Source: a virus. Taken from it: a stretch of 64,000 nt of DNA. The stretch is from IMG/VR virus record IMGVR_UViG_3300030107_008258, positions 32,001 to 96,000 of that record; one strand, 5' to 3'. This document shows, in pieces, positions 11,448 to 59,829 of this stretch; within the stretch, counting starts at the first letter, position 1, and every line of letters begins with the position of its first letter. The notes under the pieces are model-generated. The model worked only from the letters and a program-made list of their open reading frames with translations, searched no databases and was not told where the DNA came from. A program made the translations under genes and the position numbers.

Positions 11448-13862
11448 ATGGAAATAAAAGTAAAAAAGAGAAACGGCAAATTAGAAGAATTTGATGTAGA
11501 GAAGATAAACAAGTGTGTTTATCGAGCTTGCGCAGACATTGACGGAAATAATGTATCTGCGAGCGAAGTAATACTCGATGCCCAATTACAACTTTACGAC
11601 AAGATTACTACTAAGGAGATAGACGAAGCTCTAATTTTATCCGCCCGAGCCAAAATAGAGAAAGAACCCAACTACAGCAATGTTGCCGCTGCTCTAGCAG
11701 TTAACGCTCTTTATAAAGAAGTATTTAGAGAAAGCGTAGATTCTGACACCTTTGACCTCCAATACAAAAAATCGTTTGTACAAGGAGTTAAAAAATTAGT
11801 AAAAAATGAAATCCTAAGCCCTAAGCTTTTAGACTATGACTTAAAAAAGCTTTCCGAAGCCATTGACCCCGAACGAGATAAAAAATTTAAATACTTAGGA
11901 TTACAAATTTTAATAGACAGATACTTTATCCGTATCAATAATAAAATTATTGAGTCTCCGCAGGCTTTCTGGATGAGGATCGCTATGGGGCTAGCTTTAA
12001 ATGAAGACGATAAAGAAGAAAGAGCCATTGAGTTCTATAACCTTTTTAGCAATCTGCTGTACACTCCTTCCACACCTACCTTATTTAATAGTGGCACTAC
12101 TCACTCTCAACTAAGTTCATGTTACTTAAATACATTTGATGACAGCATCGACGGAATCTTCGAAGGAGTCTGGCAAGAAGCCCGCAAAAGTAAGCATGCC
12201 GGAGGTCTTGGCTTTGATGTTACTAATTTTCGTGCTTCTGGGGCTTTTATCAAAGGCACAAACGGGATTTCTGGAGGTCTTGTGCCATGGCTCAAAATCC
12301 TCAATGACACACTCGTCGCAGTAAACCAAGGCGGCAAAAGACCCGGCGCGGGATGCGCTTACCTTGAGCCTTGGCATCTTGATTTTGAAGACTTTTTAAA
12401 TCTCCGGCGAAACACTGGTGACGAAAGGCTTCGTTGCCATGATATGAATACCGCTTCATGGATTCCTGACCTTTTCATGAAAAAAGTACAGGAAGATGCT
12501 GACTGGTATATGTTTTGCCCGTCTGACTGCCGTGAACTTCATGAAGCTTACGGAGAGGACTTTGAAGAGTCTTACGATTATTACCGCCAGAAAGCAGAAG
12601 AAGGCGAACTTAAAAATTTCCGTGTTGTTAAAGCTAAAGAACTCTGGAAGAAAATGCTTAAGGTCTTATTTGAAACTTCCCACCCTTGGGTGACATTTAA
12701 AGACCCCTCTAATATCCGATACAGCAACCAGCATCAAGGCACGGTTCATTCTAGTAACCTTTGCACTGAAATTCTTTTACATACGAAACCTTCCCAATAT
12801 AAAGATGGAGAAAAAATAGAAATAGGAGAAACAGCAGTATGTAATTTAGGAAGCGTAAATTTAAAAAACCATCTTGGCGACAATGGGTTAAATAAAGATC
12901 TTCTAGCTTCGACTATTAAAACTGCCATCCGGCTTTTGGATAATGTAATTGATTTGAATTTTTATCCAACTAAAGAAGCAGAGAACGCTAACATGCAGCA
13001 TCGTCCGATTGGGCTCGGTATGATGGCTACCCATGATATTCTACAGATTCTCGATATCCAATACGATTCAGATAAAGCTGTAAAATTTATAGACGAACTG
13101 ACAGAATTCTTTTCTTATAACGCAATCCTCTCCTCCAGCGAGCTAGCTAAAGAAAGGGGTAGTTATAAAACTTACTCTGGCTCTCTCTGGGAAAAGGGTC
13201 ATCTTCCTATTGACACTTATAACACTCTCTTAGATTTTAGAAAAAAATCACCCAAGACCCCCGTGCGGGGAAAACTCGATTGGAAAAAAGTAAGGGAGCA
13301 TATATCTAAATACGGAATGCGTAATAGCAACACTATGGCGATAGCTCCCACCGCTACTATTGGCTATATTAACGGGGTAGAACAAAGCATCGAACCAAAC
13401 TTTTCGGTAATGTTTGTTTACGAATGTAAGAGTGGAAACTTTTATGTCGTTAACGAACAGTTTGTGAATGACATGAAAAAAGAGGGAGTGTGGAGTCCTA
13501 ATTTTGCTGAAGCTGTAAAAGAGGTCGATGGAGATGTGATGCTTTTAGATATTCCAAAACATCTTCAAGAAAAATACAAGACTGCTTTTGACCGGGATAT
13601 GTTTAAGTTAATTGAATGCAACGCTGCTCGACAAAAATGGATCGATCAAGGCATATCTTTTAACTTATACAATAAAGGAACTAGTTTAAAATACTTAAAT
13701 GATATTTATATGGCTGCATGGGAGGCCGGGCTTAAGACTACTTATTATCTACGCAATCGGGGCGCATCTAAAGTAGAAAAATCCACTAAAAAAGAATTCA
13801 CTGAAGAAGAACAGATAGCTTGCTCTATCGCAAACCCAGAATCGTGTGAGGCTTGTCAGTAA
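11448..13862 (+). CDS. nrdA: Ribonucleotide reductase class I alpha subunit with ATP cone (probable start ATG 11448)
   Basis: VKKRNG ATP cone, TPTLFNSG, LSSCYL, SSNLCTEI, AVCNLGS, APTAT, LKTTYYLR, C-terminal CEACQ. Confidence 0.97.
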   Translation: MEIKVKKRNGKLEEFDVEKINKCVYRACADIDGNNVSASEVILDAQLQLYDKITTKEIDEALILSARAKIEKEPNYSNVAAALAVNALYKEVFRESVDSDTFDLQYKKSFVQGVKKLVKNEILSPKLLDYDLKKLSEAIDPERDKKFKYLGLQILIDRYFIRINNKIIESPQAFWMRIAMGLALNEDDKEERAIEFYNLFSNLLYTPSTPTLFNSGTTHSQLSSCYLNTFDDSIDGIFEGVWQEARKSKHAGGLGFDVTNFRASGAFIKGTNGISGGLVPWLKILNDTLVAVNQGGKRPGAGCAYLEPWHLDFEDFLNLRRNTGDERLRCHDMNTASWIPDLFMKKVQEDADWYMFCPSDCRELHEAYGEDFEESYDYYRQKAEEGELKNFRVVKAKELWKKMLKVLFETSHPWVTFKDPSNIRYSNQHQGTVHSSNLCTEILLHTKPSQYKDGEKIEIGETAVCNLGSVNLKNHLGDNGLNKDLLASTIKTAIRLLDNVIDLNFYPTKEAENANMQHRPIGLGMMATHDILQILDIQYDSDKAVKFIDELTEFFSYNAILSSSELAKERGSYKTYSGSLWEKGHLPIDTYNTLLDFRKKSPKTPVRGKLDWKKVREHISKYGMRNSNTMAIAPTATIGYINGVEQSIEPNFSVMFVYECKSGNFYVVNEQFVNDMKKEGVWSPNFAEAVKEVDGDVMLLDIPKHLQEKYKTAFDRDMFKLIECNAARQKWIDQGISFNLYNKGTSLKYLNDIYMAAWEAGLKTTYYLRNRGASKVEKSTKKEFTEEEQIACSIANPESCEACQ

Positions 13863-14620
13863 TGGACTATGATAAAATTAATATATTCTATCCTGTAATT
13901 GGATTTACAGGAATGGTTCACTCTGAATATATGATGAGTACCATTAACCTCATGTCCTTGTGTCGTCAAAAAAATATAAAAATTGGATTGAGATCTATAT
14001 GGTTTGAAAGTTTAATTAGTCGAGCAAGAAATGCCTCAGTTGCCTTCATGCTAAACAAAGACTATACTCACTTACTCTTTATTGATACTGATATGAATTT
14101 CGCCGCGCCTGATGTCTTAAAACTGATCGATGCGGATGAAGACGTTACAGTAGGGGTTTACCCTAAAAAATACTTTAACGGGCAAAAAGTTGAAGCTATG
14201 GGGTCCACAGGTAAGTTTCCTGAACACTGGAGGCATTTAGCTACTGATTTTTCAACTGAAATAAAACCAGAAATGGCATTAAAAGCAAAAGACGATCCAA
14301 TAATTGAAGCCGAATATGCCGCTACTGGCTTTATGCTTATAAAACGCGAATGTATAGAAAAAATAATTGCTGCTAAACCTGAAATAAAATACACTAACGA
14401 TATTGATGGCTATATGGAAGCGGGAGATAATTTTTACGACATCTTTCAATGCAAAGTAAACCCTAATACTAAAAAATACGAGAGCGAAGATTATGGTTTC
14501 TGTAAGTTATGGCGATCCCTAGGAGGCAAAATAAATGTTGTAACAGACATTAGTCTTGGCCATCGAGGTTTTAACACTTATATGGGCAATTTAAAATTTC
14601 AAATGAATTATTTTGGTTAG
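13862..14620 (+). CDS. Phage GT-A/GT2-like glycosyltransferase (probable start ATG 13862)
   Basis: ESLISRARN, THLLFIDTD, ATGFMLIKR, SEDYGFC.LW; ATG overlaps the nrdA TAA. Confidence 0.7.
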   Translation: MDYDKINIFYPVIGFTGMVHSEYMMSTINLMSLCRQKNIKIGLRSIWFESLISRARNASVAFMLNKDYTHLLFIDTDMNFAAPDVLKLIDADEDVTVGVYPKKYFNGQKVEAMGSTGKFPEHWRHLATDFSTEIKPEMALKAKDDPIIEAEYAATGFMLIKRECIEKIIAAKPEIKYTNDIDGYMEAGDNFYDIFQCKVNPNTKKYESEDYGFCKLWRSLGGKINVVTDISLGHRGFNTYMGNLKFQMNYFG

Positions 14621-15857: not shown

Positions 15858-16047
15858 TGTATCTGAATTTGAAAGAAATAAGCCGCGAGAAACTTACTCG
15901 GCTATTATAAAAGTTAAAGAAAAGTATGAGACTTTACTTAGGGAGACTGTGATTATGGAGGATACAGATGCGGTTAGGGTAGAGATGGCAAGAGTTTTCT
16001 TAAGGGACTTAAAAGAAATTTTTCAAAAATTCAAATCTGGCAACTAA
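15850..16047 (+). CDS. Hypothetical protein
   Basis: 65-aa helical ORF. Confidence 0.5.
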   Translation: MPNVSEFERNKPRETYSAIIKVKEKYETLLRETVIMEDTDAVRVEMARVFLRDLKEIFQKFKSGN

Positions 16048-16063
16048 TATTGTGTAACAATAT
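16047..16063 (+). promoter_or_regulatory. GTGTAA putative late promoter inside an ATATTGT-GTA-ACAATAT hairpin
   Basis: GTGTAA at 16052-16057, 8 nt before ATG 16066. Confidence 0.6.
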
Positions 16064-16065
16064 AC

Positions 16066-16686
16066 ATGGCTAGTATAGCAGATCAATTCAAAGGGCTCCC
16101 AATTGGGACACTCATCGCGGAACCGTTGCTTGGAGCAGCGAAAGCACAGGGCCAATTAGCCCACACAACGGAAAACTTTATCAAAGATATCGGGCTAGAA
16201 GACGATGGGAATGGAAACCTTAAGGCTCGAACAGTAGAGTTCGATTACGATGCACCTATCGAATCAAAAGACGCAAATGGAGCTATTACAACAAAAATTG
16301 AAAACAGAAAACTTAAAGTCCCATTGCTTTCAGTTATACAAACCCCAAATCTAGGGGTAAAAAAAGCTACCGTAGACTTCGATATGGAAGTCAAGTCTAG
16401 CACTCAAGACACTAGCTCTGTAAACACCCAGACCGACCTTAGCGTTAAATATGATAATTGGTGGTCACCTGTAAAAGTAGATCTAAAGGCTTCAGTATCT
16501 ACTAAAAGTGAAAATATTAGGAAAACTGATAATTCCGCAAAATATACCGTTCATGTAGAAGCTCGTGACGACGGGGCTCCAGAAGGCTTAATGAAAGTTC
16601 TTGACATTCTCGGGGCAGCTATTCAACCTGTTCCTGCTGGTGGAGGCGGCGGAGGCTCCTCATCTGGCGGCAGTGGTAGTAATTAA
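16066..16686 (+). CDS. DUF2589-family protein (long beta-hairpin form)
   Basis: QFKGLPIGTLIAEPLLGAAKAQGQLA..T..FI..IG, VPLLSVIQTPNLGV...VDFDMEV, DNSAKYTVHVEA....PEGLMKVLD. Confidence 0.8.
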   Translation: MASIADQFKGLPIGTLIAEPLLGAAKAQGQLAHTTENFIKDIGLEDDGNGNLKARTVEFDYDAPIESKDANGAITTKIENRKLKVPLLSVIQTPNLGVKKATVDFDMEVKSSTQDTSSVNTQTDLSVKYDNWWSPVKVDLKASVSTKSENIRKTDNSAKYTVHVEARDDGAPEGLMKVLDILGAAIQPVPAGGGGGGSSSGGSGSN

Positions 16687-17162
16687 TGGCTGACGACAAA
16701 TTACCTTATTCAAAATCTGGATCATTTAAAGGTGCTCCTGCGCTAAAAACGTTCGATCACCTGATCCAATGTCTCTATAATTCTGTAGTTTATGCTCAAC
16801 GGTATGTAGAAACCGAGCATTTAAAACGAGTTATAGGGACGTATTTTGATGAATATGGACGACCCATTACAAAAAAAGTCGTCCTTCCCACGACTGAAGG
16901 AGACCAAGAGGTAGAGATACCGTTAATGACCCTAGCTGGTCATAACCACCTTAAAATAGACACTTTAGAAATGGAATTTGATGTAGATTTAGGCCAGTTT
17001 GAGAATGAAGACAACCACAAAAAGCGCCGAATGATCGCCATGATTGGACGCAAGGACCCTAAAAATACTTTAGCGAAAGTCAAGCTTACTATAAAAAATG
17101 GCGACACCCCTGAAGGACTCGCAAGAATAAACGATAAAATTGTAAAAACTATCCCCACTTAA
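16686..17162 (+). CDS. DUF2589-family protein (short form)
   Basis: Paralogous IPLMTLAGHNHLKIDTLEMEFDV and PEGLARIND motifs; ATG overlaps the upstream TAA. Confidence 0.75.
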   Translation: MADDKLPYSKSGSFKGAPALKTFDHLIQCLYNSVVYAQRYVETEHLKRVIGTYFDEYGRPITKKVVLPTTEGDQEVEIPLMTLAGHNHLKIDTLEMEFDVDLGQFENEDNHKKRRMIAMIGRKDPKNTLAKVKLTIKNGDTPEGLARINDKIVKTIPT

Positions 17163-17174
17163 TATAATATAGTC

Positions 17175-17411
17175 ATGGCAAGTGGTTACTTAAGATTAAT
17201 GCTCGATTCGGCCCGTCGTTGTGCCGCAGCTACCCAAGACGCGGCAGAAGATGCGCGAAAAGCAGCGCAAGAAGCTCAAAATGAAGCTCAGGAAATTGAC
17301 CAAATGGCTCAAGACGCAGCCAGTAAAGCTGTAGAAGCTGGGGAAAGAGTTAAAGTCCTTGAAGCTAAAATGCTAAAACACGACAACATGGCCCAAGAAG
17401 CGAGCAATTAA
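17175..17411 (+). CDS. Ala/Gln/Glu-rich helical protein
   Basis: AAATQDAAEDARKAAQEAQNEAQ coiled-coil pattern. Confidence 0.6.
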   Translation: MASGYLRLMLDSARRCAAATQDAAEDARKAAQEAQNEAQEIDQMAQDAASKAVEAGERVKVLEAKMLKHDNMAQEASN

Positions 17412-18394: not shown

Positions 18395-18670
18395 ATGAAG
18401 CACGGTTTTACTTTATTGGAACTTTTACTAGCCATTACTGTAATCATGCTGCTTATTTCTCTATCCTTGCAAGCTTACGCAAATTCACAGCGTCAAGCTA
18501 GAATCGCTGCGTGTAAAGTATATAGGAAGCAAATAGAAACCTTTCACGAAATGCCAGAATATGACTTGCCAACCATATCGGACTCCGATATTAAGCTTTT
18601 AGTAGAGACATATAATCAATGTTACAAGTGCCATACTACCGCAAGAATCCCTTACTATTACGCCGAATAA
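18395..18670 (+). CDS. Prepilin-type N-methylation protein with C-terminal CXXCH motif
   Basis: MKHG|FTLLELL class III signal with Glu at +5, hydrophobic helix, ARxxxCxxxxKQI, and CYKCH (18620-18634). Confidence 0.8.
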   Translation: MKHGFTLLELLLAITVIMLLISLSLQAYANSQRQARIAACKVYRKQIETFHEMPEYDLPTISDSDIKLLVETYNQCYKCHTTARIPYYYAE

Positions 18671-24515: not shown

Positions 24516-25424
24516 TTAATAAGCAGCGGTTAAAGTTTTTTGAGTCCTTACTATATCATCTAGGCCTACCGACATCGAACTGTTAATAGACTTAGCTCCT
24601 GACATCCCCACTTGCATGGTCTTCGTGGCGTTTAATCCCTTCAGTGTTATAATAGCATCTTGAGCATTTTCACCACTAAAAGGAAGGTCAGGATTAAATA
24701 AATCTTCCGTAACGTTGACCGACTCTGAAGCGGTTGTATAGTAGGTACAGGTAGGAAATTCCTGCCCTATTTTATAAACTGGATTATGATTAAACGAAAT
24801 GGAATAATCAGCTCCGTATACGGTACCAGTTTGGGGATTATCTGCGCCTCCAATAGGATTTCCTCTCCCAATAATCGTCTGAAAAGGAGTACCTATATCA
24901 GTAAACCTACCATGAGCTATTCCCGTGGCCAGCTTTCCCGTAGCCGCATATGGCGCATAATTAGAACTTTTTAAAAATCCCTCGACTGGAGCATTTGACC
25001 CACTACCAAAAAAAGTAAATGAAGCACTTGAGCTCGAAACCGAATTGCTGGCCACGTTAAAGCTATAAGAATTTAAAAACCCAGTACCAGTAACTCCGGC
25101 AAACTCTATCCTAACTCCGCTAGCCAGAGAATTGATGGAATTCTTAATGCCGCTTGCAAGGTAATTCACAATATTTCCTTTCTGACTCGCATGAACTCCC
25201 GTTATAGTAGTTAAAAAATTAAACGATACATCCCCAGCTCTTGCCGCTGTTGGAAATTGCCCAAGGGAACCTTTCGTGCCAATACTATAAAGAGGAGCTT
25301 GTGAAGAGTTGAATGATATACTGCAATCTGAAGCCAGTAGCACTTCGCTCAAAGCGTTCACTCCTTGCGTAGGATTAACCGTGAGCCTTACCGCCGTCTT
25401 ATCGTAAAATACATTCTGTGCCAT
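24516..25424 (-). CDS. Tail tube-like minor tail protein (paralog 2)
   Basis: Internal repeats SISFNSSQAPLYSIG and SISFNHNPVYKIG. Confidence 0.5.
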   Translation of the reverse strand: MAQNVFYDKTAVRLTVNPTQGVNALSEVLLASDCSISFNSSQAPLYSIGTKGSLGQFPTAARAGDVSFNFLTTITGVHASQKGNIVNYLASGIKNSINSLASGVRIEFAGVTGTGFLNSYSFNVASNSVSSSSASFTFFGSGSNAPVEGFLKSSNYAPYAATGKLATGIAHGRFTDIGTPFQTIIGRGNPIGGADNPQTGTVYGADYSISFNHNPVYKIGQEFPTCTYYTTASESVNVTEDLFNPDLPFSGENAQDAIITLKGLNATKTMQVGMSGAKSINSSMSVGLDDIVRTQKTLTAAY

Positions 25425-34959: not shown

Positions 34960-35832
34960 ATGAAACCTGAGACTTTTCAAGCCTCTATTGAAAAAGGCTC
35001 TAATAAATTATATCTTCAATCCAACCGTGAAGCAGCTACTAGAAATGGAGCATTCATAAAGCTTGATTCAAACGATATTTTTTATCGTATTGAATCCTCA
35101 GAAAGCATTAACATAAGAAGAAAGTTTACCTTTGATGGCGACCACTCTATTAAAATAAAAGGTAACTACGACTTTAAGTTAAGTACGGGAGATTCCGCAA
35201 AAATAACTTTTGACGAACTCGAAGCTGTTCATGTAGGTAAGCTTATCGATCAGCAAGGTAAATATAAAGTAGGGCAAAAAATCTATCTTCAAGGAGGCAT
35301 TACATCAAGTTTTAGCGGCAACATTACTGGAGAATATGGAGAAGTAGAAGTATTAAAAGTAGATGAAGCGGGAAAAATCTTATCTGTTGAATTAACTAAA
35401 CCGGGGCTCTATATTAAACCTCCTGAAAACCCAGTAGATATCATGGATGAAACAGGACAAACTTTAAAAGCAGAAGTTGAGTTTGACTCTTCATCACATT
35501 CTTCAATAATAGAAAGAGATTTTACTTCTGTAGAAAATTCTGGATCAGAAACTTTAATAAGACTTTCTTATGATCTACCTAAAGGTGTTTTATTCGGGGA
35601 GATGACAGTGTCTAAGCAGGTTATATTACTAGATAAACCTTATTCAAGTGAATCTTTCGAAAACGGAATATGTCAAATAACTTTCGACTACTCACCCGTT
35701 AATGGAATACCTCTTTTACCACCTAACAGTATAGACCCCCAAACAACTTATAACGAAGCTGTCTTAATAATAGAAAATAAACTTCAAAATATGGAAAAAA
35801 GAATAGTGCGTATGGAAAATATGAATTATTAA
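34960..35832 (+). CDS. Putative tail-associated protein
   Basis: Follows gpJ; C-terminal P..GIPL......YNEA...IE motif; its stop overlaps the tape measure stop. Confidence 0.55.
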   Translation: MKPETFQASIEKGSNKLYLQSNREAATRNGAFIKLDSNDIFYRIESSESINIRRKFTFDGDHSIKIKGNYDFKLSTGDSAKITFDELEAVHVGKLIDQQGKYKVGQKIYLQGGITSSFSGNITGEYGEVEVLKVDEAGKILSVELTKPGLYIKPPENPVDIMDETGQTLKAEVEFDSSSHSSIIERDFTSVENSGSETLIRLSYDLPKGVLFGEMTVSKQVILLDKPYSSESFENGICQITFDYSPVNGIPLLPPNSIDPQTTYNEAVLIIENKLQNMEKRIVRMENMNY

Positions 35833-38800
35833 CCTACTCCCGTGGTCCCTTTATTTAAAAGCCCACCGGGACGCTGTTGTTTGATAATTTCCTGAACAAC
35901 CACATTCTGAAGAACTTTACCAAACTCTTTATTGTTTTCAACCTCTTGCGATTCCTCTCTTTCTGAAGGTCCTCCGCTTTGACTTGTTGCGCTTGTATCA
36001 GCGGAAGCCTTTCCACTTTTATCTATATTGACGCTTACCTTAACATTATTAGTAGTGTTACCTCCCGTGTTTAGACTTGAGCCTCCATTATTAATTACAG
36101 GCCCCGGTTGATTACCAAACAAACCTCCCGCAGCAAAACTAGGAACATTTCCTCGATTAAGCTCCGTCATGAAGTTTACCCCATGGGTACGTACAGCTGA
36201 CGGACTCATGATATATTCGCCGCCCATCACCCTAGCGATACCACCATTAGCGCCGCCTCGAGGATCTCCACCTACTGTAGCTGATAAACCACCTAGTGTT
36301 TCAGGCCCCGGAGTTGCAAATCTTTCACTTAGCGGAAATTTCTCAAGATTGTAATGGGTAGGGATTTTTGCCTGTTCAAAAGCTGCATTGTAAGCTTGAC
36401 CTTGCTCTGCTGCCACTGCCGCAGAGTCCATCCATTTTGCTCCACCTATTAACATGGCCGCATTCATATAAGCCCCTATTAACCTTCCTCTTTTTTGCCT
36501 CTTTACAGCATTAATTTCATCTCTTCTTCTTTGAGTTTCGGTTGTAAGGTAATCTTGATACTTTGCCATCTTTTGCTCTTTATCAAACATTCTTGCAGTT
36601 TGCGGATCATCAGCGCCAAGCCTTCCAAGTAAAGAGAGCTTACTACTTACATCAAATTTCCCTTCTGTGGGCCTTGCTCGTTCGCTTATTAACTGACCTG
36701 TTTTTGGATCACGTCTATAATAAACAAAAGCTTTCCTAAGTGATACTCCGGCTGCTCCGCCTCTCCCTGAAACAACGTCCGCCCCTCCCGCGTCTGGATC
36801 AGGGCCTCCAAAGTACCCATAGGATCCCCTTCCGTAACCATAATTTTGAGAAGGAGCCGGACTTGGAGTTCCGGGCTGCATAGCCGCGCCAATTAAACCT
36901 GAAGCAGCGCTAGCTCCTGCAGCGACCAAACCCATTTGACCCATTGTTGGACCTCCGTTAGCAAAACTTGGAGCTCCATTAATAGCATTTAAAGTAGGCA
37001 ACCCGATTTTGTTTACCGCGGATTTTTTAATAACAAATTCTCCTCCACGCATTCTTGTTATTACGTCATCTTTTTGACCAGAGCCTCCTGTTACCAACCC
37101 TCCATAGTTATAACCGGGTACATAACCACCGTTAGCATACTGGTTTCCTCCCATGCCCATCTTCGCAAACATCATATTTGTAAACATCTGTGATGACATA
37201 CTGGAAATAGAATTAAGTATGCTTTGAGCCATATTAGCCAAAGCCCCTTGAACCGTACTAGCTCCACTAGCTATAGATTGAAATGCATCTGCAAAAGACG
37301 ACTTCATTGTTTGAGCAACCTGTCGTGTGCCGCTTTCAAAATCCTGAAGAGCGTCTACCCCTTCGTAACCAAATTCGTTTGTAAACCCAGCTCTAAAAGC
37401 CGTACCAAAATCTCCACGTTGTAGGCCCCTACCGGCAACTTGCTTGGCTAAGTTGGCTGAAAAAGCAGCATTTCTTCCTCGGGCTCCCATCTGACCCGTG
37501 TTTACCAGCCCTCTAGCTTCAGCTAATTCCTGCTGGGCTAACGCCGCTTCTATTTCCCGCGACTCTTGCCTCCTTGCTGTATTAAGTTTATATGCTAGCT
37601 TTAAAGTCTCAATATCTAATCTATATTTTTCTTTGGCTAACGCAATAGCATTTTCTTCAGTTTCTCTGGCTGCGTCTTTCGCTAAAATATGTTTTTCTTC
37701 TGCTTTTGTAAGAACGTCAATTACTTTTGAAAGATTTTGAAACGCCATTTGCTGCTCTATGCCTTTTAGGTCCCCCTTAAATACTCCAGTCCGTAACTTA
37801 AGACCCTTTACATCCGCTAATTGATTTAGGTAAGTGTCCACACTCTTCCTGTCTCCTCCCGATGCAGAGGCTCTTAGTCCCTCAAAAGCTTGCAACGCCA
37901 TCTTGGCTTGACCTGCTCCTAGCTTTTGCCCTTCTATAAATTTTACAACATCTAAATCTTTTAAACCTGCTTTTACGTCAGTCTCAAGGGCTTGGTCAGC
38001 TATTCTATCTTTTCCTCTTCGGGTTATTCCAGCTCTACCAAATGCAATTCTTTGAGCTACCCCTGCAGCGTCTCGTCTAGTTAATGTAGCCCCAGCTTTA
38101 GCGGTACGATAACTTGCCCCTAGCCCAAACATTGCTCCTTCTTGAGCTACGTTACGTGTCAAAGTAGCCAAAGCTCTTTTAGACCCTAGAACCTCTTGGC
38201 GGTAGCCCTCTTGCGCCAACATGGCTTTTCTTATGGTCTCTGAGAAATCTGCAGTCTCTTTATTTTCTTTTCTTTTTCCTTCATTCCCCTCTGCTATTAA
38301 TTTGTTGTATTCTGCTTGATTGCTAAAAATCTCAATAAGTCGATTTTGAACATCTGCGAAGGCTTGTTCCTGTTCTTCCGGAGTTAAATCTTCTCTAGCG
38401 TATATTGCTTTTTGAGCTGGCCCTAGTAATTTTTTGTTGACGTCTTCAGGAGTAGATCCAGTAAGAGCTGCAATTAAATCATTTTTTTGGGATCTTGACG
38501 CATCCTTGCGAAAAGATGAAAAAGGATTGGCCAGACCACTTTCAAATATATCAGCGCCGCCCAGTATACTCTTTTCCATCATCCAAGGCGATACGCCTCC
38601 CGCAGCTAACCTTTGAGTCACCGCTGCGGAACTAAAAGCAGGACTATTAGTCTGTAGGTTTTTATAAAGCTTATCAGCATATGTTGCCCCAACTCCTCCT
38701 GCAATTCCCATCTTTTTCTGGCTTGCAATTCCAGCTCTATCCCTCATGAACTGCGCATAAATAGCGTCGTCCGCATTATAGTTGGCGAGGCGCTCACCAG

Positions 38801-41800
38801 TTCCTTGCATTATCTCGTAGCGGCTCTGTAAGAGCGTCCGATCCTTTGGACGCCCTTTTCCTGTTATCGAGTCTCTCCCGCTCAACCATCGATTCAGTGA
38901 GTCACCACTCCTTACGCCTTGCCTATTTAAAGAGGCTCCTCTCTCTATTCCTGCAGGATCCTTTTGGAACAGTGCGTTAAATTCGGCCTGTGGTAATAAA
39001 GACTTTGTAAACGTCGTTCTTTGAAACAGTCGTTTATTGAAAGCGCCCAGTGCCGCTCCAAAATTAGTTTTGTCTGAGGCTTCTAGAGCTGCAAGCTCCG
39101 GAGTACCATGCATACTATGAGCCGCTGACGTCTTGCCTCCTGCCTCCGTGCCTATACCTAAGGTTCCTAACACCGCTATTTTCTTACTCATGAACTCTGC
39201 GGTAGAAAGTGACTCTGCCAATTTTCCAAAACCATCAGCCGCTCCCAAGGATGCAGAAAGAAGAGCCTCATTAGCTTCAATTTCTCGTTTTAGAGCCTCG
39301 GCAGCCTCGTCACTCGTATCCATCAAAAGACTTATAATCTCAGTCAAGCCTTGTAACCCAGCTCCTGCAAGAGCCCCCATCGGACCACCCATAGCTCCAG
39401 CCAAACCTGCAGCTCCCACACGTTTCCACCAATCACCGCTGTCATCTGATGTTTGCCCCATAAGGTTCATACCTACCATTCCTATACCCATTCCGGCTCC
39501 TTGCTTCAAGCCTGTCCCTGCATAACCAAGAGCCTTCTTCCCAACTGCTCCCCAGAAATAATTAGGAATAAAGCCAGAGGAAGCTCCATGCGCTCGTGGG
39601 TTTATGCCCATTGCGGCAGACCTTGCCACTCCTTGCCTTAACCCTCCGGGTTCATGAATAGTATTATAAACGCCAACCCCTGCCGGGTTGCCGGGTCCTT
39701 TTAAAGAGGCATTAGAACCTATTCTTATTGCAGATGCAGGAACTCCTGCCGCTACTTCTCTCCCTATGGCGTCACCTAATGGAGAAAAATTTGGTATAAA
39801 ACCTAATGCCTTACCCGGCTTTTTGTTTGGAGTGTGAAACATAAATTGAGCTCCCGGCCCATTTTCAACAAGCTCCTTCGCCATCTTGTTTACCATACTT
39901 GATCTATTACCCTTTGATCTGGAAGCCTTGTAATCTGCTATTCCATATCCTCCTCCAAATATAGGGTGAGTTTTCGCTGCTTGGTTTCCCCTTAGATCGA
40001 AATCTCCTATTTTATTTTCTTCCGCTGCTGCTTCTGCATCTAAAGCTAAATTCATCCCTACTTCAAACCCTGCTCCAGCTGCGGCGGTTAAAGCTCCCTT
40101 GGCTCCCTTAGTACTATCCAAAGCTCCTATAACCTCTGGAAGAGTCACTTCTCGAGCTGGAGGATTTATCTTCATTGCATACTTCATGGTTTCGTTAGCT
40201 ACAGCTTTCGAAATTGATCCAACGATGTCAGTAGGGGCAAGTCTGTCTAAAGTCTCTTGATTGTAACTTCTTATGGGAGACTGCGCTTTAAAATTTTTAT
40301 ATTTCCCTGTTCCCGACACTAATCCTCCTAGAGCATTAGGTTGCCCATCAGGAACCAACATGGCTATACCTCCCTCTAAACCTCCTCCAATTGTTATAAG
40401 CCCCCCAGCTTCCTCCATTGCTTTTCTAGATTTTGCGGTATGTCCTTTTTTAGGTCTATAACCTTTGGCTCCGGCCACCATAGGCCTCGCAAAATTAGGA
40501 ACAAACCCACCAGCAGCATAAGGATTGAAACCATGCGCAGCGCCAAAAGCTGCCTTATAACCCGCTCCAGCCGCACTGTTCGCTGGCGGCATAATTGCAG
40601 ACTGGCTCATTCCCGGGAACCGTTTGACAGTTTCTGCCGAGTTATACATCATTGTTCCGGCGCCGGGTTGACTCATAGTTCTTATAGCCCCAGCTCTATA
40701 TCCACCTGCCGCGGCCGCCGCTCTTTCCGCGCCCGCATTAGCGAAGTTTGGAACAAAACCAGCAGCTTTCCCCGGGGTTCTGCCAAAAGCGCCCCTCCCC
40801 CTAGACATTACTCCTCCCGCAATAGTCGAAGCGGCAATTTGCGCTTGGGCTCTAGCTGTATTTTGTGCTCGTATAGTGGCAAGTATTAGTTTTTCTACTT
40901 CTAAGATTCCGCTTGCTCCAGATTTAACTTTTGTCATCAGAGAGGGCTCTTTCATTAAAATATTAACAATACCTTGTTCTAGCGCCGCCCTCTCTTTGGT
41001 AGCCTGATTAATTCCCACTATGTCCTGAAAAGCCTGCTTAGCAAAACTTCCAAGTTTCATGGCTAGTTTACCAAACACAACACCAGCCATTATTAAACCC
41101 GGGCCACTTATGAACTTGCCCATTCCCGCGAGAAGGTTTTTCCCTATCCCTTCCCCAAAGCTCTCCATCTTACCGCCCTCTCCGAAGGATTCAATTAATT
41201 TATTTATTCCCCCTAGGACATTCTGTATAGCTGGACCAAACATCCCTTCGCCCAATGTCGCACCGGCCGAGGTTAAGTTCGCTAAAGTTTTATTAACTAG
41301 AGCGTCCATGGTTTGATTTAATTTTTCATTCTTCCGTTGAGCTTCATCAGTAGCTGTGTTAGCGGCCTTTAAGGATCCAGCGTAAACGGAATTTGCCGAA
41401 GCTAGGTCAGCCATTGCAGCTTTTAAGATATTAACCTGAAACACTCCAGCCACTTGTTCAGAAACAGAAGACTGTTGCGCTTTTGACAAACCATTAAAAC
41501 TTTTAGCGAGATTCTCTACTATCTTTATACCTGAGAGCATTTGCCCCTGCATATCTCTGGTAGCTACCCCTATGTTTTCCAATCTTTGCTGTACGTCGCT
41601 ACGTTGAATACGAGTAAAAATAGTTTTAAAGGCGTTACCAATTACAGCGCCACCACGAGCAGTTCTTTGTTGGACCGCTGTTGTTATCGCCATCAATTCG
41701 TTCATGCTTACTCCGGCTGAAACGGCTGAAGCACCTACACGGGAAATTGACTTTGCTAAATCTTCTGAACTAACCGCAAACTTAGCATCCACCTTTGCCA

Positions 41801-42413
41801 TACGGTTAATAATTTGAGTTGAATTAACCCCCTCTTTATTAAATGAGTTTACAGCGGCAGTTAAAGACTTAACAGAATCAGCCGCCTTCATTCCTGTCAG
41901 TCGGGTGAGAATTAAAGCGTCTTTAGTACGGACAAGAGTATTTTCCATACTTAAGCCCTGACGAGCAAATTCCGTGGTTGCTTCTGCGACTGTATCGAAA
42001 CTTTGAGCAGTTTCTTTTGCAACCTTAAACATTCCTTTACTGAATTGTTGAAGTTGCTTGTTGTTGAGATTCATGACGATGTTAACATCAGCCATAGCTT
42101 TCTCAACTTTGATGGCGCTTTTGACCATCGCTTTCAACGCATTATCAACTTGATAAATTAATCCAGCAGACGCACCAAAAGCGATAACACGAGCATTGGA
42201 AGCTTCAAGAGATTTACTAAACTCATCAGCCCGAACAGTAGCCTTCGAAAGACCCGTCCCAAGGGCTCGTACCTTATCAGTACCCCCTCCCCCTCCAAAA
42301 CCTGTGCTGAGGCTTTTACCGATCTTAGCAGCAGCTTTTTCAAGCTTGGCAATTTCCCTTGCCGCTTTTGTTGCTTCTAATTCCAGTTCTACTCGAAGTT
42401 TGTCCGTCGCCAT
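35829..42413 (-). CDS. Tape measure protein (TP901-family N-terminal domain), 2194 aa
   Basis: EFARQG, GAVIGNAFKTIFTRI, Ala/Gly-rich helical body, C-terminal GEFVI/GEYIM and RPGGLL; follows the chaperones and tube. Confidence 0.92.
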   Translation of the reverse strand: MATDKLRVELELEATKAAREIAKLEKAAAKIGKSLSTGFGGGGGTDKVRALGTGLSKATVRADEFSKSLEASNARVIAFGASAGLIYQVDNALKAMVKSAIKVEKAMADVNIVMNLNNKQLQQFSKGMFKVAKETAQSFDTVAEATTEFARQGLSMENTLVRTKDALILTRLTGMKAADSVKSLTAAVNSFNKEGVNSTQIINRMAKVDAKFAVSSEDLAKSISRVGASAVSAGVSMNELMAITTAVQQRTARGGAVIGNAFKTIFTRIQRSDVQQRLENIGVATRDMQGQMLSGIKIVENLAKSFNGLSKAQQSSVSEQVAGVFQVNILKAAMADLASANSVYAGSLKAANTATDEAQRKNEKLNQTMDALVNKTLANLTSAGATLGEGMFGPAIQNVLGGINKLIESFGEGGKMESFGEGIGKNLLAGMGKFISGPGLIMAGVVFGKLAMKLGSFAKQAFQDIVGINQATKERAALEQGIVNILMKEPSLMTKVKSGASGILEVEKLILATIRAQNTARAQAQIAASTIAGGVMSRGRGAFGRTPGKAAGFVPNFANAGAERAAAAAGGYRAGAIRTMSQPGAGTMMYNSAETVKRFPGMSQSAIMPPANSAAGAGYKAAFGAAHGFNPYAAGGFVPNFARPMVAGAKGYRPKKGHTAKSRKAMEEAGGLITIGGGLEGGIAMLVPDGQPNALGGLVSGTGKYKNFKAQSPIRSYNQETLDRLAPTDIVGSISKAVANETMKYAMKINPPAREVTLPEVIGALDSTKGAKGALTAAAGAGFEVGMNLALDAEAAAEENKIGDFDLRGNQAAKTHPIFGGGYGIADYKASRSKGNRSSMVNKMAKELVENGPGAQFMFHTPNKKPGKALGFIPNFSPLGDAIGREVAAGVPASAIRIGSNASLKGPGNPAGVGVYNTIHEPGGLRQGVARSAAMGINPRAHGASSGFIPNYFWGAVGKKALGYAGTGLKQGAGMGIGMVGMNLMGQTSDDSGDWWKRVGAAGLAGAMGGPMGALAGAGLQGLTEIISLLMDTSDEAAEALKREIEANEALLSASLGAADGFGKLAESLSTAEFMSKKIAVLGTLGIGTEAGGKTSAAHSMHGTPELAALEASDKTNFGAALGAFNKRLFQRTTFTKSLLPQAEFNALFQKDPAGIERGASLNRQGVRSGDSLNRWLSGRDSITGKGRPKDRTLLQSRYEIMQGTGERLANYNADDAIYAQFMRDRAGIASQKKMGIAGGVGATYADKLYKNLQTNSPAFSSAAVTQRLAAGGVSPWMMEKSILGGADIFESGLANPFSSFRKDASRSQKNDLIAALTGSTPEDVNKKLLGPAQKAIYAREDLTPEEQEQAFADVQNRLIEIFSNQAEYNKLIAEGNEGKRKENKETADFSETIRKAMLAQEGYRQEVLGSKRALATLTRNVAQEGAMFGLGASYRTAKAGATLTRRDAAGVAQRIAFGRAGITRRGKDRIADQALETDVKAGLKDLDVVKFIEGQKLGAGQAKMALQAFEGLRASASGGDRKSVDTYLNQLADVKGLKLRTGVFKGDLKGIEQQMAFQNLSKVIDVLTKAEEKHILAKDAARETEENAIALAKEKYRLDIETLKLAYKLNTARRQESREIEAALAQQELAEARGLVNTGQMGARGRNAAFSANLAKQVAGRGLQRGDFGTAFRAGFTNEFGYEGVDALQDFESGTRQVAQTMKSSFADAFQSIASGASTVQGALANMAQSILNSISSMSSQMFTNMMFAKMGMGGNQYANGGYVPGYNYGGLVTGGSGQKDDVITRMRGGEFVIKKSAVNKIGLPTLNAINGAPSFANGGPTMGQMGLVAAGASAASGLIGAAMQPGTPSPAPSQNYGYGRGSYGYFGGPDPDAGGADVVSGRGGAAGVSLRKAFVYYRRDPKTGQLISERARPTEGKFDVSSKLSLLGRLGADDPQTARMFDKEQKMAKYQDYLTTETQRRRDEINAVKRQKRGRLIGAYMNAAMLIGGAKWMDSAAVAAEQGQAYNAAFEQAKIPTHYNLEKFPLSERFATPGPETLGGLSATVGGDPRGGANGGIARVMGGEYIMSPSAVRTHGVNFMTELNRGNVPSFAAGGLFGNQPGPVINNGGSSLNTGGNTTNNVKVSVNIDKSGKASADTSATSQSGGPSEREESQEVENNKEFGKVLQNVVVQEIIKQQRPGGLLNKGTTGVG

Positions 42414-59445: not shown

Positions 59446-59829
59446 TTAAGAATTAGATGGTTGAGTCACTTCAGGAAAGACATTGAAATCGCCTTTCATT
59501 AATTTTACTACAGCGCCATTAGCGTCTTCTCCGGCTCCTGTTGGGTATCTTTCTATATCATAAACAAATTGACCCACGGGCAAGTCTACAGTTTGAGTTC
59601 CACTTAAATAAATGTCAATTAAACCACTTATCCATGCGTCTCCATTATTTCCCGAAACAATAGTAGGCGAAAGATCTATAAGAGAAGAAGCGCTACTGTA
59701 ACGATATTTAACTACTCCTCGAGCTCCATAACCGCTCAAATCTATAGCGTTTCCGTTCGTGTCCTTTACATTTAACCGAACACTTAATTCCGAACCTTGA
59801 GAAGCGTCAAAATTATAAACCGTTGCCAT
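59446..59829 (-). CDS. BppU-like fibre-anchoring beta protein
   Basis: QGS......D..G..IDLSGY.AR, YDIE, L.KG.F.V.PEVT. Confidence 0.6.
   Translation of the reverse strand: MATVYNFDASQGSELSVRLNVKDTNGNAIDLSGYGARGVVKYRYSSASSLIDLSPTIVSGNNGDAWISGLIDIYLSGTQTVDLPVGQFVYDIERYPTGAGEDANGAVVKLMKGDFNVFPEVTQPSNS

Follow-up and report, generated by a model that had tools for sequence, protein, structure and literature searches.

To our knowledge, every known holin is an α-helical membrane protein, and the insertion hairpin of aerolysin has a hydrophobic or aromatic tip. Pepco (Trypco1/Trypco2) is a protease-activated β-barrel pore toxin that is made in the cytoplasm (Evans et al. 2025, bioRxiv 10.1101/2025.11.14.688446). 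Experiments showed that its barrels are nonameric and decameric and resist sodium dodecyl sulfate (SDS), that a basal amphipathic helix is essential, that the lumen is charged and that the C-terminal tail is disordered (bioRxiv 10.1101/2025.11.14.688446). Here, we compare these systems with a pair of genes, A and B, encoding DUF2589 proteins in a 64,000-nucleotide (nt) stretch of viral DNA (the window), which corresponds to positions 32001-96000 of the 144,418-bp IMG/VR virus record IMGVR_UViG_3300030107_008258. The record represents an uncultured marine tailed phage. From its sequence, the pair appears to be the phage version of an uncharacterised DUF2589 A/B cassette, and the role that we favour, at a probability of about 0.35, is a late, lysis-related permeabilisation of the membrane.

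The DUF2589 gene pair and its distribution in viruses

A (206 amino acids (aa); window positions 16066-16686, plus strand) and B (158 aa; 16686-17162, plus strand) both match DUF2589 (Pfam PF11655), with E values of 1.5e-32 (113.5 bits, model positions 1-152) and 7.2e-17 (62.6 bits, positions 2-153), respectively, the gathering score being 23 bits. A six-frame search of the record also recovers both as DUF2589 proteins. The two open reading frames (ORFs) overlap by 1 nt in the sequence TAATG, an A of the TAA stop codon of A being the A of the ATG of B, and are on this basis predicted to be translationally coupled. A comprises, in order, an N-terminal helix, a β core, a hairpin (residues 110-157), a helix with the PEGL motif and a Gly/Ser tail. 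The (V/I)PL and PEGL motifs are common to both proteins, and a profile alignment places a short charged loop of B opposite the long hairpin of A. Each of these elements, including the hairpin string at residues 111-154, had been described in a sequence-only reading of the window, and all are present. By BLASTP, A and B do not match each other significantly (E 0.05), while their family profiles align over 137 columns (hhalign 97.6%, E 2.8e-12). They are ancient paralogs, related at the profile level only, and not the product of a recent duplication. Both genes are under strong purifying selection, the ratio of nonsynonymous to synonymous substitution rates (dN/dS) relative to sister phages being 0.03-0.05 for A and 0.02-0.04 for B, with saturated dS.

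In agreement with the sequence-only reading, a hydropathy scan detected no signal peptide in either protein; neither a transmembrane (TM) segment nor an N-terminal hydrophobic leader is present, and the amphipathicity of the N- and C-terminal helices is ordinary for helices packed on sheets. Fused forms of DUF2589 carry no informative extra domains. Searches of PHROGs, PADLOC and NCBIfam gave no match for A, B, the downstream ORF C or the bacterial partner proteins discussed below. The literature searched mentions DUF2589 twice, incidentally and without an assigned function, as had been supposed, and does not mention PF11655.

The hairpin of A spans 48 residues, is amphipathic and is rich in Ser and Thr (33% of residues 110-157 versus 14% genome-wide). 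Across 44 homologs, the alternation of hydrophobic and polar columns is conserved on both arms, with hydrophobic residues at odd positions from 119 to 131 and at even positions from 136 to 144, and the tip W132-W133-S134-P135 shows no or almost no variation. For β-type amphipathicity, the best 11-residue windows of A (100-110 and 135-145) are within the highest-scoring 0.1% of the phage proteome.

Structure prediction with AlphaFold2 (AF2) gave a fairly confident model of B (predicted local distance difference test (pLDDT) 83, predicted template modelling score (pTM) 0.62), in which an N-terminal helix of 30 residues is followed by a hairpin, three more strands and a helix at the C-terminus. 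All five models of A, for which the input alignment mixed close and distant homologs, have low mean confidence; in the model that was kept, mean pLDDT is 56 and residues 109-156 fall below 50. That AF2 failed to pack the hairpin in a monomer would fit an element that is conformationally mobile or depends on oligomerisation; it proves nothing. Foldseek, proposed in the sequence-only reading for a comparison with β-pore-forming and Trypco folds, returned no solved fold from the PDB for the B model (best E 0.5), and VIA-align found no match among 48,161 chains (best Z 3.5). In BFVD, the B model matched two unnamed viral proteins only, one of which (E 9.4e-10) is evidently a family member, and the ESM Atlas returned DUF2589 clusters only. 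Sequence searches of solved structures gave no match for the DUF2589 profile or for a Trypco2 protein.

A GTGTAA motif (16052-16057, plus strand), a putative late promoter element, lies 8 nt upstream of the ATG of A. In the record, GTGTA is under-represented (109 copies on both strands versus about 310 expected by composition), and 29 of the 109 copies are located on the coding strand in the 60 nt preceding ORF starts, against an expectation of about 4, representing an enrichment of about 7-fold. The genes preceded by the motif are mostly structural, including those for the tape measure and several tail and head proteins; the reductase and deaminase genes are not among them. Because A and B share the motif with the structural genes, their late co-expression with these genes may reasonably be expected. 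The late promoter proposed in the sequence-only reading thus holds as to the motif and its enrichment before structural genes, its activity as a promoter being putative. A search around the pair gave no plus-strand terminator that would delimit its transcription unit. In general, GTGTA(A) occurs in an AT-rich context and at two classes of distance before ORFs, about 9-16 nt and about 23-31 nt; other examples in the window precede the minus-strand ORFs at 24516-25424, 35829-42413 and 59446-59829.

A word-based protein search identified 780 homologs of A at E ≤ 0.001; among the 120 matches listed, identity ranges from 54 to 99%, and ocean (Tara) samples make up many of the named sources. Relatives of A are encoded in 153 IMG/VR stretches; 80 loci were compared together with the window (81 viral loci in total). 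An A-type ORF is found in 78 of these 81 loci, a B-type ORF in 76 and the pair in about 76, the two ORFs nearly always being adjacent and on the same strand, with A preceding B in the close clade and B preceding A in the distant clade. B evolves much faster than A (identity 26-50% versus 48-63%). A is conserved to the same degree as the putative head proteins and belongs to the best-conserved proteins that these uncultured phages encode. GenBank phages gave no DNA match, and the sole relative of A there lies on one 4-kb faecal contig, leaving no cultured phage to serve as a model. In one distant phage clade, a protein of about 100 aa follows the pair (locus L049:6702-6995 and 11 other viral loci); it combines a CxxC...C zinc-ribbon-like N-terminus with a C-terminal hydrophobic anchor and is absent from the window.

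Bacterial cassettes and comparison with described pore-forming systems

Over nearly its full length, A is 36-49% identical to proteins from Xanthomonas, Stenotrophomonas, Novosphingobium, Desulfovibrio-type, Flavobacterium, Cyclobacterium and other genomes. All five bacterial genomes tested contain exactly two DUF2589 matches. As in the phage, the bacterial and archaeal cassettes combine a long, hairpin-bearing protein with a short paralog on the same strand; unlike the phage pair, the bacterial cassettes include a very conserved protein of about 85 aa, here called c1, and are often accompanied by a wall hydrolase beside them and by a regulator. The order is A, c1, B, plus further small proteins. 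The c1 protein, encoded in 33 bacterial loci (for example, L098:8650-8916 and L128:4257-4538), is conserved across phyla, displays the motifs LNRCL, LGEHQVV and YHxGF, and belongs to no Pfam, NCBIfam or PADLOC family.

The Xanthomonas array starts with a GH108+PG_binding_3 lysozyme gene and ends with a gene for a GerE-type response regulator. As it is set between kynurenine-pathway, carbonic anhydrase and tRNA synthetase genes, it lies outside a prophage. In Cyclobacterium, a GH25 muramidase gene follows the cassette; in Desulfovibrio-type genomes, it is followed by a gene for a protein with an N-terminal PG_binding_1 domain, and a divergent histidine kinase gene and a LytTR regulator gene are found near the Flavobacterium cassette. 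By tblastn, a wall hydrolase gene is present within 3 kb and on the same strand in at least 28 of 64 bacterial loci, this count being a minimum since the search was limited to three query proteins. These comprise GH108+PG_binding_3 (10 loci), GH25 (8) and PG_binding_1 (10) proteins in three lineages; the GH108 and PG_binding_1 proteins have no signal peptide. Unrelated hydrolases that replace one another beside a conserved core are the classical sign of a module for lysis or hydrolase release. The bacterial linkage fits a membrane-breaching role, as guilt by association and not as proof.

Pepco resembles A and B in several respects: these are small proteins made in the cytoplasm, with an N-terminal amphipathic helix, strands in which charged and hydrophobic residues alternate, a hairpin that bears aromatic residues and a C-terminal tail that is disordered. 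Unlike Pepco, DUF2589 proteins have an extra hairpin after helix 1, a C-terminal helix and an A/B pairing; no protease family was found among the neighbours within 10 kb of the pair, which lies outside defence islands and has no PADLOC or defence-family match. For profile comparison, Trypco2 sequences were gathered from genomes, the word-based protein search having returned six close matches only and the Desulfobacterota genomes none. Compared with DUF2589 by hhalign, nine Trypco2 sequences gave 3-5%, whereas 21 sequences and a greedier alignment gave 34% and a collinear alignment over 101 columns. The latter aligns the AQ-motif helix with a helix, the E-x-E-L-x-V strand with the one preceding the hairpin and the final K-I-K-L-K-L strand with the one preceding PEG. 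One of 121 family members matched in the Trypco2 comparison, at E 0.016, and neither A nor B matched the Trypco2 family (PF19631) in Pfam at E up to 1. In Bacteroidota genomes (L180 and L181), Trypco2 domains occur as tandem doublets within single ORFs of about 200 aa, recalling the pairing of DUF2589 proteins.

Canonical holin/antiholin systems and Cid/Lrg-LytSR share with A and B late expression, which is putative for the pair, and the pairing of an effector with a related modulator. The likeness extends, for the bacterial DUF2589 cassettes, to linkage with murein hydrolases lacking a signal and with a LytTR-type regulator. Holins and Cid/Lrg proteins, however, are α-helical with at least one TM segment, of which A and B have none, and A and B do not adjoin the hydrolase gene in this phage. 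The pair resembles aerolysin-type proteins in its Ser/Thr-rich hairpin, which is amphipathic, of the insertion type and tipped with hydrophobic or aromatic residues, a likeness in sequence features only. A and B are much smaller than aerolysin toxins, are synthesised intracellularly and have no signal peptide. They gave no match to the Aerolysin or ETX_MTX2 families in Pfam at E up to 1, and chains of these families were not among the Foldseek or VIA-align matches of the B model, the model of A being too poor for such a search; the aerolysin kinship evoked by the sequence-only reading is not supported. Since neither A nor B has an export signal, its suggestion that they kill neighbouring cells is unlikely as well.

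A possible membrane-permeabilising role and the lysis genes of the phage

A hetero-oligomer of a long and a short paralog with a membrane-type hairpin is a fair reading of these observations. A and B would be made together, late in infection, in the cytoplasm and, via translational coupling, in roughly equal amounts. They may then co-assemble into an oligomer to which A would supply its conserved amphipathic β-hairpin with aromatic tip, which could enter the cytoplasmic membrane from the inside, while B, the paralog without this hairpin, would set or restrain assembly in the manner of an antiholin. The outcome would be a membrane permeabilised or depolarised as the cycle ends. The Sec- or SAR-type (signal-arrest-release) wall hydrolase of this phage could thereby be released or activated, A and B possibly acting alongside a small holin-like protein with two TM segments. 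What the data show is the anatomy of the genes, their paralogy and conservation, the late-type motif and the link to wall hydrolases in bacteria; we infer oligomerisation, membrane insertion and any role in lysis. The linkage to hydrolases in bacteria and the parallel with Pepco strengthen this permeabilisation model.

The lysis genes of the phage bear on this model as well. As the sequence-only reading had stated, the window contains no holin or spanin gene; candidates begin 159 nt past its end, in a candidate lysis cassette on the minus strand (record positions 96159-97044, window-equivalent 64159-65044), which also includes a 71-aa amphipathic ORF and an ORF for a 101-aa secreted protein. 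The sole wall hydrolase found in the record is a Hydrolase_2 protein (PF07486, SleB-type; record positions 135255-135572, E 5e-16), encoded about 87 kb from the pair. Its hydrophobic N-terminus is rich in Ala, Thr and Ser and may be a signal peptide or a SAR-type anchor. The gene is located among small genes that have a repeated "..SLITE.." peptide in common, in one frame (record about 135.06-135.58 kb; L185:1303-1827). Phage_lysozyme, Amidase_2, Peptidase_M15_4, SLT, GH25 and PG_binding_1 domains were not found in the record; the search for GH108 is uninformative, having matched nothing in control genomes either. Judging from positions and sequences, this phage has scattered lysis genes and a hydrolase that is exported on its own, so that the distance between the pair and the hydrolase is weak evidence against a role in lysis. 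With a leader-bearing hydrolase, depolarisation would suffice and no large hole would be needed.

Several points weigh against permeabilisation. In the candidate lysis cassette, a 64-aa holin-like ORF, with two hydrophobic segments, a charged tail and GTGTA upstream, and an overlapping ORF for an 85-aa lipoprotein, with an LVSGC lipobox and a match to the Rz-like spanin phrog_456 (E 2.4e-5), are conventional lysis candidates, and the phage does not obviously need A and B as a holin. The neighbourhood survey, suggested by the sequence-only reading as a check, upheld the pairing but located no lysin adjoining the pair in the four phage clades with Pfam-annotated neighbours; in one of them, a Hydrolase_2 gene lies 5 kb away, and in this phage no lysin is found among the annotated neighbours within 10 kb. 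In a search with a hidden Markov model (HMM) of 33 c1 sequences (E < 0.01), c1 was found neither in the phage genome nor in the 80 viral loci, and some bacterial cassettes stand alone, with no hydrolase nearby. The homology to Pepco is not significant, and the alignment is suggestive either of a shared design or of very distant kinship. For paired amphipathic strands, A ranks merely fourth of 175 phage proteins, other, presumably structural, proteins scoring similarly. Hairpin residues Y129, K147, R152, D155, N156 and S157 are conserved in identity, which points to specific protein contacts more than to lipid exposure, so many invariant residues being unusual for a purely lipid-spanning hairpin. 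The long-plus-short membrane pore envisaged in the sequence-only reading is thus partly supported: the conserved pairing, the hairpin and the bacterial hydrolase linkage are in favour, while the invariant hairpin residues and the conventional lysis candidates elsewhere speak against it.

Genomic surroundings and alternative roles

Among the proteins of the tailed phage are a tape measure protein of 2,194 aa, a minor tail protein, and baseplate and fibre-like proteins, as well as a ribonucleotide reductase and a dCMP deaminase encoded in one nucleotide-metabolism block. Around the pair are reductase genes, glycosyltransferase-like, phosphatase-like and pilin-like genes and a gene for a 2-oxoglutarate (2OG) oxygenase. 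Directly downstream, ORF C (17175-17411, plus strand) encodes a 78-aa, Ala/Glu/Gln-rich helical protein with weak matches to coiled-coil-type Pfam families. Its conservation is limited to the 19 loci of the close clade, and in other clades a different gene comes after the pair; it is a clade-specific neighbour whose place in the module is doubtful. The glycosyltransferase-like gene (13853-14620, plus strand; 255 aa, weak Anp1 match) sits between the genes for the large and small ribonucleotide reductase subunits, overlapping both, and is kept in 19 related loci; in another phage clade (locus L163), glycosyltransferase genes are likewise directly upstream of the DUF2589 pair. A 91-aa protein (18395-18670, plus strand) has a prepilin-type N-terminal methylation motif (N_methyl, E 2.8e-5), and related phages (loci L168 and L173) encode longer pilin-like proteins of 326-330 aa near the pair. 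Among phage clades, the surroundings of the pair vary and its position relative to the structural modules is not fixed. Its neighbours are genes for a helicase, a YqaJ exonuclease and RecT in one other clade and, in further clades, those for fibre-like Laminin_G_3 proteins and PhoH, a P22-type portal block or a jumbo-phage auxiliary region. In one relative (locus L022), the pair is directly upstream of a head-gene block.

Rather than entering a membrane, A and B might form a soluble cytoplasmic hetero-oligomer or polymer (a ring, tube or lattice) that serves late processes as a scaffold, chaperone or compartment, with the hairpin as an inter-subunit contact. We consider this somewhat unlikely. 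It would agree with the conservation of the hairpin in residue identity and not in pattern alone, with the lack of TM helices and lipid anchors, with the location of the pair among nucleotide-metabolism and auxiliary genes and not lysis genes, and with a fold of B that has no known relative and hence gives no positive sign of a pore. A soluble assembly, however, leaves unexplained why wall hydrolases of three unrelated types recur beside the bacterial cassettes, as well as the β-amphipathic pattern, the aromatic tip and the non-packing of the hairpin by AF2.

More improbable is a membrane activity unrelated to lysis, such as superinfection exclusion, host takeover or counter-defence acting through membrane potential or envelope permeability. 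The distance of the pair from the holin-like, spanin-like and hydrolase genes and its variable auxiliary region, with an adjoining pilin-like gene and oxygenases and a neighbourhood that shifts between clades, would suit such a function. Superinfection-exclusion genes, however, are usually early, whereas A and B share a late-type motif with the structural genes; PADLOC and defence-family matches are absent, and the bacterial context indicates wall hydrolases. A virion-associated role, as a structural or decoration component or as an ejection protein forming an entry channel, is very improbable: the late-type motif shared with structural genes, the arrangement in L022, a conservation of A equal to that of putative head proteins and its common occurrence in marine viral-fraction data speak for it, but 40% identical cassettes are chromosomal, non-prophage, amid metabolic genes and under two-component regulators (Xanthomonas, Flavobacterium), and in phage genomes the pair has no fixed position relative to the structural modules.

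Beyond this phage, we tentatively propose, while regarding it as doubtful, that DUF2589 A/B may be a new and very widespread device for breaching the membrane from inside, in which the hairpin subunit would form a β-type pore, gated by the hairpin-less paralog, with a fold that may be a distant relative of that of Pepco. In bacteria, it would serve as an exit for wall hydrolases, and in marine phages as a non-helical "β-holin" or depolariser at the end of infection. If this were true, a β-hairpin permeabiliser built from two paralogs and shared by phages and chromosomal hydrolase cassettes would constitute a new route across the cytoplasmic membrane, and a function would be assigned to a family present in hundreds of marine phage contigs and in many bacterial phyla. 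The function of A is relevant to how infection ends in a large group of ocean viruses.

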